IMG/VR virus record: IMGVR_UViG_2541047776_000001
Coordinates: 1 to 10,428 of that record
Source of the DNA: a virus
Lineage: Duplodnaviria; Heunggongvirae; Uroviricota; Caudoviricetes
Length of the DNA stretch: 10,428 nt
Reading direction: 5' to 3' (one strand)
Of this stretch, positions 6,001 to 9,000 are shown in pieces. Position numbers: made by a program. Numbering within the stretch: position 1 is the stretch's first letter; every line of letters begins with the position of its first letter.

Positions 6001-9000
6001 ATTTTTGTAGAGGCAACGATTCAAGCAAGTAAAGAAACTTACATAACCTCTGCAATACAATACGCACCAAAAAAAGGTGGTGTCGTTGAATCTGGTGACT
6101 ATATTTATCTGGCCACCCCTCAGGTTGAGGATGGTTCGTGTGTATCATCTTTTATTATATCAGGAACGACGGCGGCGACGCGCGCAAGCGATATGGTTAC
6201 AGTTCCGATTAAGAATAATCTTTATAATCTTCCTTTTACGGTTCTTTGTGAGGTACATAAGAACTGGTATAAAACGCCAAATGCAGCGCCACGTGTTTTT
6301 GATACCGGCGGTCATCAAACCGGAGCGGCTATTATTCTTGGCTTCGGATCTTCGGCAGATGGGCCAGACGGATTTCCTTATTGCGATATTGGTGGATCAA
6401 ATAGGCGTGTTAACGAAAACGCATCGTTGAAAAAAATGGTTATGGGGATGCGTGTAAAGTCAGATCAGTCTACATGTGCAGTAAGTAACGGGCGTATATC
6501 CAGCGAAACAAAAACCACATGGGAATATATCCGGAGTACAGCAACCATTCGCATTGGTGGACAAACTACAGCAGGATTACGCCATTTATTTGGGCATGTG
6601 AGGAATTTTCGTCTCTGGCATAAAGAGCTAACAGATGCGCAGCTTGGGGAGGTTGTGGAGTGAGAGATTTCACGTTGCGTTTCAGTGATAAAGCAGATTT
6701 CAGGGCATTTCTCAGGAAACTTAACTGGGAAGAGGACGAAGAGCTGCAGAATGCCGTTCTGGTTGATGAGATTGGTTTTACGTTCAGGGAGACAGATGTT
6801 TCTGATGACGGAGAACCAGAATACACGCGAAACGAAGGGTACTTTGTTAATATCCGTCTTCTTGACGATGGATTTGATGATTCCGTGTTCCGTGAGTGGG
6901 TGGTTACACCAGAGCGCCCGCTCAGGGAGTGGTTTTAAGGATAGCAGATGGATATCACGTCGATACTTCATGCGCTTTGTGCCGTGGCGGTGCAGGTACT
7001 GGCTGGTCTTTTTACCGGAAACTGGGCTTACGGGGCGATAGCCGGTTGTACGTTCTTCATTGCGCGTGAACACACCCAGGCAGAATATCGCTGGATTGAA
7101 ATGTTCGGGCATGGCAAGCGGATTAACATGCCGTGGTGGGGCGGTTTTGATCCACGTGCATGGGATGTGGCAAGCCTGATGGATTTTGCTGTGCCGGTGG
7201 TGGCGTGTCTGCTGGTCTGGCTGTTGGTTAATCGTGGGTGAAAAAGGTGAGCAGTATATGCAACGAAGGAGGAAACATCATTGCTGGCGGCATGGAAGGC
7301 ATGCAGGGTGTTGCTGAACCGTGTTGATACATCAACTGCACCTGATATTGAGTGGCCTACGAACCCTGTCAGGGAGTAATCATTGGGATTATGCCGCAGC
7401 ACGTCTTAAGCAAGAACGTGCTGCGGTTGGATGCTATTTTTTCCCTGAAGCGGAAAACATTACTACAGTACCTTGAACCTTGGTTTTAACATTCTCGAAA
7501 TGCTCTGAGAGTATATGTGTTAAGCCTTCTTCGGAATCTTTTGTGTTTGAAAAGATGCCTTTCTGATTGTAAATGCGCATCAGTTTTTGACCGAAGCTAT
7601 TGTGCACAACGCCGTCACCAAGAATTGTGGCTCCGTATAGAGTTCCATCGTCAGTTAAGGCCTGCGCCGCATTGCGTATTACACAGCTTTTTGTAGATAT
7701 ATTTCCAGGCAGGCAGTGAAGAAGGTAAAACATGGAAATGGAATCAAATTGACCATGTAACGCCGCGGGATAAGGATCAAAAACATCATGGCTAATTTTA
7801 TGTTTAATTTTTGATTCCCCAGCCCTTGTCGATGCCGCGTTCAGGCTAGCTTCGTTCAAATCCATTAAAGATATCAGACTACTCTCAGGTACGTGAGTAA
7901 GGTAAAACCCAGTTCCAACGCCAATATCCAGATGGTTGTTACCTAAATGTTCCAGAAAGTGTGGAAGAAGGTGTTCCTTTGTAGGACATCCCCATGCAAG
8001 CCGATTTGATACTCCCAAAACCCACCAGTCATAAAGCTTTAGGGTAAGTGGTGTGTAAATTTTAGCCCCATCATCTGTGTTTTTTTTCATTAGTTTCACC
8101 GTATTATAGTTTTATTTGTGAATTAAATCAATTATGGCGATGAATTACAAGGGGTTAAATGCTGCCGCAGCATAGCGATATTGAAATAGCCTGGTATGCT
8201 TCGATACAGCAGGAGCCGAATGGCTGGAAGACCGTCACCACACAGTTCTACATCCAGGAATTCAGTGAGTATATTGCGCCACTGCAGGATGCTGTAGATC
8301 TGGAAATCGCAACGGAGGAAGAAAGATCGTTGCTGGAGGCATGGAATAAATATCGGGTATTGTTGAATCGTGTTGATACATCAGTAGCTCTGGGTATGAA
8401 GCTGTTTGTAACTCATGTTACAGTAACAGCCATTACTATCTCGAAGGTGCAAAATGTATATTGATTTGATATTTTATAAATTTACTTCGAATCTGGCACG
8501 TCAACTTTTGATTAAAGTAATATCAGTTTTCGGCGAAAAAAGGACCGTGTACATGAGACGATTTCATACAAGAATAACAAAAATATGAATATGCTCCCAA
8601 TGCAATATATGTTTTGCATTGGGAGCAAATAGCGGAATATTTTGAAATTATTGTATTTCTGCTTCAGAATTTCCTGGGCAGTATATATTTTCTGGTTTTT
8701 GTGGAGTGATCAGGTGATGTACAACTGCTTTATCTACACATAAATTAACTCCGGTGAGAGCTAATGTATGCCCATCACCATTTATTGTTAGTAACGGGCT
8801 GGAAAATTTCTCTGCCATCTTACGGGCATTAATCCAGGGCGTTGTTGGGTCGTATTTGTGTGCTACAAACAGTAAACCAGAGGGCAGAACAGTATTTTTC
8901 AGGCGAGTTTTGTTCAGGTCGCTATGTATTGGCCATAATTCACAAAAATCAGGTGAATCGGAACGTCCATTGTCAAAGTTAATAGCCGGGAAGGCATTCG

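Follow-up and report, generated by a model that had tools for sequence, protein, structure and literature searches.

The gene order tfaD-ybcY-tfaX has been annotated in the DLP12 prophage of Escherichia coli K-12 since the genome of this strain was sequenced, and it is ordinary for lambdoid prophages. The final 200 bp of lambda tfa undergo Red-mediated recombination with both DLP12 tfa homologs and with tfaR (Poteete et al. 2004, PMC545071), and lambda acquires DNA from defective prophages via stf/tfa homology by relaxed homologous recombination (De Paepe et al. 2014, PMC3945230). A tfa'-ybcY-ompT context has been reported for uropathogenic E. coli (UPEC) strains (bioRxiv 10.1101/594564). Here, we analyzed a stretch of 10,428 nucleotides, positions 1 to 10,428 of the IMG/VR virus record IMGVR_UViG_2541047776_000001 (referred to as the window), in which two fragments of tfa, designated A and B, flank a methyltransferase gene. 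This DNA belongs to a lambdoid prophage of extraintestinal E. coli and forms its right arm. Our comparisons favor, with a probability of roughly 0.8, an explanation in which A and B are two independent tfa stumps at the joint between the fiber module and the accessory ("b-region" or moron) module of an ev243-like lambdoid prophage, followed by later homologous exchange. Morons are accessory genes, independently transcribed, that lie between the phage late genes and the attachment site.

Two tfa relics flank the methyltransferase gene

The elements that define the locus are as follows.

7260-7379, plus strand: fragment A, a tfa 3' stump of 39 codons and stop (TfaD codons ~149 to 187; Caudo_TAP positions 95-130 of 131, E 2.9e-14)
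7320-7334, plus strand: 15-mer copy 1, exact match to CGTGTTGATACATCA (codons NRVDTS)
7434-8099, minus strand: class I S-adenosylmethionine (SAM)-dependent methyltransferase, ybcY (Pfam Methyltransf_12/23/25/11; phrog_2132)
8263-8388, plus strand: fragment B, conserved segment of a second tfa allele (TfaD codons ~133 to 175; tfaX equivalent; Caudo_TAP positions 75-121 of 131)
8369-8383, plus strand: 15-mer copy 2, exact match to CGTGTTGATACATCA

A repeat search of the window returned a single 75-nt direct repeat (7260-7334 versus 8309-8383, 81% identical; blastn E 3e-14), and fragments A and B both scored above the Pfam gathering cutoff of Caudo_TAP (PF02413), with 53.8 and 65.1 bits, respectively, against a cutoff of 22.1. 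These results bear out an earlier note, made from the sequence alone, which had described two tfa fragments in direct orientation around a methyltransferase gene and sharing about 75 bp of homology. The note had taken 7263-7379 as the Tfa C-terminal end and about 8267-8384 as an internal Tfa segment, in close agreement with the limits found here: the tfa-derived DNA of B runs from ~8252-8263 to 8388 (8237/8252-8389 by tblastn to TfaD/Tfa), and its Caudo_TAP match covers residues 31 to 77 of an open reading frame (ORF) at 8159-8464 (E 8.9e-18).

Of the 15-bp identical core in that description, the first copy was placed exactly, while the second lies at 8369-8383 and not at 8370-8384, one base off. 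With up to 2 mismatches allowed, a search of the window for the 15-mer returned these two copies alone (0.01 expected from shuffles). Because it is identical in lambda, K-12 tfaD, PhiR26_1, and several further tfa copies, it simply represents the most conserved tfa codons (NRVDTS).

A working tfa has a full-length ORF over the profile, ~190 amino acids (aa) in lambdoid phages, and neither fragment has one. Fragment A covers positions 95-130 only and has no start, and B covers positions 75-121 only and has foreign sequence on either side. Both are tfa relics, and neither is a functional tfa gene.

We compared A and B with the intact tfa genes of lambda, K-12 (tfaD), PhiR26_1, and PhiR68_2 over the 75 columns shared by all, and both proved homologous to each other and to tfa. 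A and B are 81% identical to each other in these columns, while A is 79 to 84% and B 87 to 89% identical to intact tfa; the longest exact run between A and B is 15 to 17 bp. Because A and B resemble intact tfa genes as much as, or more than, they resemble each other, they derive from different tfa alleles and not, as previously proposed, from a single permuted gene. A search for an intact parent of B found that the best intact Tfa proteins were only ~76 to 80% identical across the segment.

The left junction of fragment A occurs without the methyltransferase

At its left junction (7259/7260), fragment A is joined to a 97-aa ORF at tfa codon ~149 (…GGTGAGCAGTATAT followed directly by GCAACG…). 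The same junction is common to four comparison loci (L024 to L027), and in three of these the stump is followed by cargo other than the methyltransferase cassette, namely sitABCD (L024 and L026) or pinQ-ydfK (L025). Since the same join precedes sitABCD and pinQ-ydfK, the junction of A is independent of the cassette; A would thus be the standing right end of the fiber module, with an old junction. The sitABCD genes behind the stump encode an iron/manganese transporter, and L026 keeps only ~57 bp of the stump.

Fragment A (G+C content, 51.7%) is itself a mosaic. Between 7260 and 7305, 12 of 46 positions differ between the window and K-12; 7306-7379 is identical to K-12 tfaD and to PhiR26_1, and all of 7306-7433 contains one mismatch to K-12, at 7418 (Fisher p 4e-7). 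NCTC86 carries module-type sequence to ~7301 and K-12-type sequence from ~7308, which together with the split in mismatches places a crossover at 7302-7307. The segment 7260-7305 travels with the fiber module and is changed at conserved residues (LLEAWKKYR to LLAAWKACR), changes that would fit the decay of a noncoding stump.

Fragment B lies within a three-part chimeric ORF

The ORF over fragment B (8159-8464, 101 aa) combines three unrelated parts, a phrog_3893 N terminus, the Tfa segment (codons ~32 to 77), and an AT-rich tail. The two parts that flank fragment B are as follows.

8159-8262, plus strand: truncated 5' end (~35 codons) of a gene of the phrog_3893 family (79-aa phage protein), fused to tfa sequence (PHROG phrog_3893, residues 3-37, E 3.6e-7)
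8389-8464, plus strand: AT-rich tail "X," codons 78 to 101, which closes the chimeric ORF and opens the cargo block (8388 is the last position with homology to K-12 tfaX or any tfa 3' end)

An intact 79-aa phrog_3893 homolog is encoded by Klebsiella phage Kp4885-3, and the G+C content of 8389-8647 is 32.8%. These assignments correct two points of annotation: the 101-aa "tail fiber assembly protein" is a three-part chimera, and the first third of this protein is of phrog_3893-family origin. In two genomes, RefSeq places a partial "DinI family" pseudogene on the minus strand of this region (~8177-8257; L009 4816-4895 and L027 4231-4311). This reading was rejected as doubtful, since Pfam is blank in all minus-strand frames at E values up to 10 and the plus strand matches phrog_3893.

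The junction of phrog_3893 and tfa (~8252-8262) is the same in K-12, ev243, PhiR26_1, PhiR68_2, NCTC86, and comparison loci L009, L010, and L012 to L017. Its identity in every copy examined points to a single origin.

The right side of B is a mosaic. Mismatches between the window and K-12 number 4 in the 238 positions of 8100-8337, against 14 in the 51 positions of 8338-8388 (p 1e-8). Of these 14 mismatches, 12 are synonymous, one is an N/K exchange, and one is the K-12 nonsense codon; the excess of synonymous changes suggests that the two right-hand alleles diverged as working genes before they were joined. A crossover appears to have joined two B alleles somewhere between 8204 and 8337.

The structure seen in the window is not shared by all relatives. 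Comparison locus L009 and Escherichia albertii (L016) track the window to 8383 and then continue into a normal tfa end (switch at 8383/8384). The right copy continues VAPDIEWLIQP and stop in K-12 (…RVDTSVAPDIEWLIQP and stop), and TAPDIEWP, further residues, and stop in L009, L012, and E. albertii; it likewise ends in its own tfa 3' end in the Shigella/E. coli loci L012 to L015. In L012 and E. albertii this end is followed by the post-tfa hairpin. The left copy is full length in PhiR26_1 (194 aa) and in E. albertii. The order "core-3' end ... internal-core" given in the earlier note is therefore not general, since other loci have a complete left tfa and a right copy with a tfa 3' end. Judged from these comparisons, the general structure is tfa, hairpin, methyltransferase, truncated small gene, and the 3' portion of another tfa. 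A permuted appearance arises only where A is cut at 7260 and the end of B is replaced at 8388/8389, by two unrelated events.

The methyltransferase gene and its borders

The methyltransferase gene is bordered by two further features.

7393-7427, no strand assigned: strong hairpin between the convergent tfa stump and methyltransferase gene (fold z-score -4.5 on both strands)
8100-8158, no strand assigned: divergent intergenic region between the methyltransferase gene and chimeric ORF (promoter-like site on the minus strand at 8131-8103, 10 of 12 matches)

The ybcY gene is intact in the window and a pseudogene in K-12. Its G+C content (41.4%, versus 49% for the whole window) agrees with its earlier description as AT rich. 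The protein scores 37.5 bits against Methyltransf_12 (cutoff, 30) and exceeds the cutoffs of Methyltransf_23 and Methyltransf_11, while the DNA methyltransferase families N6_N4_Mtase, DNA_methylase, and MethyltransfD12 are not among its Pfam and NCBIfam matches. The nearest solved structures are small-molecule O-methyltransferases, at E values of ~1e-3. The predicted enzyme thus shows a weak similarity to small-molecule O-methyltransferases and not to DNA methyltransferases.

Copies in phage records, found in 15 E. coli lambdoid phages, are all at least 95% identical. The nearest divergent homologs (61 to 65%) lie on the Enterobacter chromosome, where their neighbors are dcp and ydfG and where phage genes, including tfa and phrog_3893, are lacking. 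By its distribution, the gene looks like a captured nonphage gene, a moron. A donor with ybcY beside an intact phrog_3893 gene was sought and not found, and all phage copies already have the fusion. Short contigs binned as Bacillus, Planococcaceae, and Segatella in metagenomes (L013, L020, and L023) carry the E. coli methyltransferase at 97 to 99% identity, almost certainly through misbinning or contamination.

The hairpin at 7393-7427 is a likely terminator. In PhiR68_2, L012, L014, and L015, homology to the window begins at 7394, so the hairpin is the left edge of the cassette in these loci. On the other side, the promoter scan overall showed no enrichment over shuffles. Where all other methyltransferase copies start with ATG, the window reads ACG (it differs at 8101 and 8103), and the start must therefore be GTG at 8099 or ATG at 8090; through the same two changes, the minus strand gains a perfect TATAAT at 8108-8103.

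Within the cassette bounds (7380-8262), the repeat search found no terminal inverted repeats or target-site duplication, and no ORF is present besides the methyltransferase gene and the chimeric ORF. We rejected insertion as a transposon or site-specific cassette, given the lack of bounding repeats and of a recombinase or transposase gene in the cassette.

A proposed history of the locus

The favored explanation builds on the homology, junction positions, sharing of junctions across loci, and mosaic breakpoints observed here. It would involve three founding joins, each illegitimate and made once, at 7259/7260, ~8255, and 8388/8389. Stump A would have formed when a fiber module that does not use a lambda-type Tfa (a 688-aa fiber and two small ORFs) took the place of stf and of the tfa codons up to ~148. 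Stump B would stem from a block of the form "...tfa - hairpin - ybcY - phrog_3893 gene" that became fused, at a point within its phrog_3893 gene, to the central part of a resident tfa. This join at ~8255 would have put tfa, hairpin, and ybcY upstream of the resident tfa, with loss of the 5' part of B. In the lineage of the window, the last ~13 codons of B would then have been replaced at 8388/8389 by AT-rich cargo (hydrolase and ompT).

Afterwards, the last ~130 bp of tfa, which lambdoid phages conserve, would have served as homology for RecA or Red, with reshuffling of the sequences on the left side of A and on the right side of B, and the methyltransferase moron would now move between tfa-derived homology arms. 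The window itself may come from a crossover inside the stump between a GB089-like phage and a cassette-bearing phage. We infer the order of these events, and the direction of this exchange, from the loci compared. Mosaic breakpoints inside both stumps (~7302-7307 and 8204-8337) indicate that conserved tfa sequence was used for the exchange of neighboring modules. The suggestion of the earlier note that the fragments are a recombination scar in the conserved tfa region therefore holds in that breakpoints lie inside both fragments; the 15-bp core itself is not supported as the point of cassette entry, since the illegitimate junctions lie elsewhere.

Several points weigh against this account. Hundreds of genomes, along with ev243 and PhiR26_1, contain the chimeric ORF in intact form, and PHROG assigns it a separate family (phrog_2341), so it may have a function. 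The divergent patch at 7260-7305 could be another allele instead of a decayed stump, the right end of the window type (X) may either predate or postdate the versions with a proper tfa 3' end, and the order of events rests on a few dozen loci and not on a full phylogeny. In addition, a search of 5426 complete E. coli genomes for the A/B recombinant (fiber module, A/B hybrid, and X) found no place that covered 80% of the query, so the stumps are not demonstrably active partners of each other in the window; this absence fits the weak mutual homology of A and B. For the reciprocal junction (left part of B and right part of A, queried as a 450-nt synthetic sequence), the matches in 2396 genomes reflect only the presence of both halves nearby and not the junction. 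A junction of the reciprocal type is present as B, tfa 3' end, and hairpin in E. albertii and in protein P0017.

Alternative explanations

The account that the earlier note suggests, in which a single tfa was opened at the conserved 15-bp core by entry of the methyltransferase cassette, with the halves permuted and the core duplicated, describes the window well: A consists of the core and 3' end, B consists of the internal part and the core, and both lie in direct orientation around the cargo. The departure of L009 and E. albertii from the window right after the core also implies that a crossover occurred there at least once. This history is nonetheless very improbable. The 81% identity of A and B is no closer than that of each to unrelated tfa alleles. 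A full left tfa occurs in PhiR26_1 and E. albertii, K-12 tfaD spans the whole profile, and in K-12, E. albertii, L009, and L012 the right copy is complete at its 3' end. The founding junctions (7259/7260, ~8252-8262, and 8388/8389) all lie outside the core, and the left junction of A occurs without any cassette. A single crossover at the core further predicts a left copy without the 3' end and a right copy with it, the opposite of what the window shows. Nor do we think it probable that the fragments are the ends of two adjoining prophages, or of a tandem duplication, between which later deletions spared only the methyltransferase. Such arrays do occur at this site, as a second copy of tfa', methyltransferase, and ompT with an integrase fragment lies 4 kb downstream in IHE3034, and in E. 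albertii ~170 bp of tfa 3' end and hairpin flank the cargo on both sides. The left neighbor of B, however, is a truncated phrog_3893 gene and not att, integrase, or early genes; the whole arrangement lies inside single viable phage genomes of 45 to 48 kb; and identical junctions in distant hosts point to one founding join followed by spread. Least probable of all is a remnant of an invertible tail fiber switch (Pin/Gin/Cin type) with alternative fiber ends and tfa facing each other. A pin recombinase gene does lie just downstream of tfa or the stump in PhiR68_2 and in a Qin-like prophage, but the fragments of the window are direct and not inverted, the window has no recombinase gene and no alternative fiber C terminus, and the repeat search found no bracketing inverted repeats.

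The alternatives that assign a function to the fragments are also improbable, if somewhat less so in the case of the chimeric ORF as a selected gene (phrog_2341), for example, for a truncated Tfa-like protein that interferes with the fiber assembly of competing phages. The ORF adjoins the divergent promoter region, retains the most conserved Tfa segment, and remains uninterrupted in the window, in ev243, PhiR26_1, and Turner, and in a protein cluster of 514 members. Against such a function, it is disrupted by an in-frame TGA (a nonsense codon) in K-12, a frameshift in L009, a 7-bp deletion in NCTC86, and an internal deletion in P0044, and it is lost altogether from a UPEC remnant. Its C-terminal tail also changes completely between lineages, with 82-, 89-, 101-, and 108-aa forms and many length variants among protein clusters. 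We infer that the 101-aa ORF is most likely a nonfunctional by-product. A wider version, in which the stumps would be maintained as universal "adapters" for swapping modules and cargo, or alternatively the 101-aa ORF would be expressed as a truncated Tfa that interferes with the fiber assembly of competitors, draws on the repeated crossovers inside the stumps and the wide occurrence of the intact ORF in viable phages; we consider it a distant prospect. Two independent stumps with later homologous exchange remain the explanation that we prefer.

On that explanation, the locus is a worked example of lambdoid assembly, in which three one-off illegitimate joins combine with repeated homologous exchange in ~120 bp of tfa coding sequence. 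The outcome is sitABCD, pinQ, ybcY, appY, or hydrolase-ompT cargo behind differing tail fiber modules. Little of this is new in kind: the K-12 annotation is old, and recombination between the DLP12 tfa homologs and lambda tfa was shown in 2004 (PMC545071).

Genomic setting and other features of the window

Over positions 6900-8800, the window matches strains ECO20 and ECO21 at 100% identity and IHE3034 and PMV-1 at 99.9%. The gene order of the window is J end, IS66-family insertion, lom, 688-aa tail fiber, two small ORFs, fragment A, methyltransferase, fragment B, alpha/beta hydrolase, and ompT. The remaining features are as follows.

4597-6663, plus strand: tail fiber gene, 688 aa (Pfam phage_tail_N, E 1.4e-69; annotated as tail fiber/tail protein in IHE3034 and ev243)
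6660-7241, plus strand: two small fiber-module ORFs (6660-6938, phrog_1361, PHROG E 1e-40; 6948-7241, phrog_1443, predicted membrane protein, PHROG E 6e-58)
8592-8627, minus strand: terminator-like hairpin of the hydrolase gene (fold z-score -6.3)
8648-10132, minus strand: secreted alpha/beta hydrolase, cargo (Pfam Abhydrolase_1, E 3e-33; annotated in IHE3034, ev243, and PhiR26_1)

The tail fiber gene is the first gene of the fiber module that displaced stf and most of tfa. A strong A-over-T skew at 4950-5400 within it (AT skew up to 0.69) stems from a long repetitive protein stretch rich in Ala, Ser, Lys, Thr, and Glu. The phrog_1361 and phrog_1443 ORFs are conserved, occupy the position expected of the chaperone gene after the 688-aa fiber, and also stand ahead of this tfa stump in prophages whose cargo is different; in L024, L025, and L027, a further "tail fiber domain" gene separates them. 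The hydrolase gene sits where K-12 has appY, and ompT is next. An Rfam search of the window found no RNA family.

The IS66-family element (1383-3837; tnpA 1465-1869, tnpB 1866-2213, tnpC 2262-3800) is inserted 27 bp before the native J stop, with ~7 bp duplicated at its ends, and is not present in IHE3034. Since it replaces the last codons of J, this copy of the prophage may produce no infectious particles.

Comparison with known systems

Positions 7260-8388 correspond to the 3' end of tfaD, ybcY, and tfaX in DLP12 of MG1655 with 96.2% identity over 1129 bp, a collinear match that confirms the likeness described in the earlier note. The three elements have the same order and orientation, the junction of phrog_3893 and tfa to the left of tfaX is the same, and the sequence around it (8159-8337) is nearly identical. 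The two loci differ at both ends. K-12 tfaD spans the whole of Caudo_TAP and carries an N-terminal fusion to a terminase fragment, whereas the window keeps the last 39 codons behind a different fiber module; K-12 tfaX is another allele from 8338, keeps the tfa 3' end, contains an in-frame TGA, and is followed by appY instead of the hydrolase gene.

The closest isolated phage is ev243 (Nesevirus), which is 99% identical over 7251-8464 and has the same fiber module, stump, methyltransferase, 101-aa ORF, hydrolase, and ompT. Further isolated phages grouped with ev243 are 2G7b, PhiR26_1, PhiR29/30/49, and Turner; the presence of the arrangement in isolated phages makes it compatible with viability. 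Relative to this group, the window has the extra IS66-family insertion in the J end. PhiR26_1 differs in that a lambda-type Stf and a full 194-aa Tfa replace the fiber module and stump A, followed by YbcY, the 101-aa fragment, hydrolase, and OmpT.

Cassette-free relatives, with which the earlier note had proposed comparison, were also found. GB089 and four other complete genomes carry fiber, a DUF4376 protein, ~300 bp, a tfa stump, X, hydrolase, and ompT. GB089, a complete genome, was used in place of L007, a draft/metagenome contig with many frameshifts. The GB089-type stump matches B at 97% identity, shares its junction with X, and extends four tfa codons further to the left (…IQIASEHIAPLQ). 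The block of stump, X, hydrolase, and ompT thus exists without the methyltransferase.

In IHE3034, a second, older copy (L001 13856-15902), located 4 kb past the window end, comprises an integrase fragment, tfa fragment, methyltransferase, and ompT and is a DLP12 remnant beside ybcH and nfrA, of the kind described for UPEC strains (bioRxiv 10.1101/594564); IHE3034-type strains accordingly have ybcY and ompT in duplicate, within tandem prophage ends. The remnant lacks the equivalent of 8186-10162 (the tfaX-like piece and hydrolase), with microhomology (ATTTGAA) at the join, and the loss of B there would most simply be a deletion.

The methyltransferase gene resembles morons in its position on the opposite strand, lower G+C content, 3' hairpin, lack of phage relatives below 95% identity, and Enterobacter chromosomal relatives; its promoter is only predicted. 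As in the work of De Paepe et al. (2014) and Poteete et al. (2004), the sequence at issue is prophage tfa remnants that serve as a substrate for Red or RecA, and the mosaic breakpoints of the window lie in that sequence. Those studies measured recombination in the laboratory, whereas the breakpoints described here are natural, historical, and deduced from sequence comparison.

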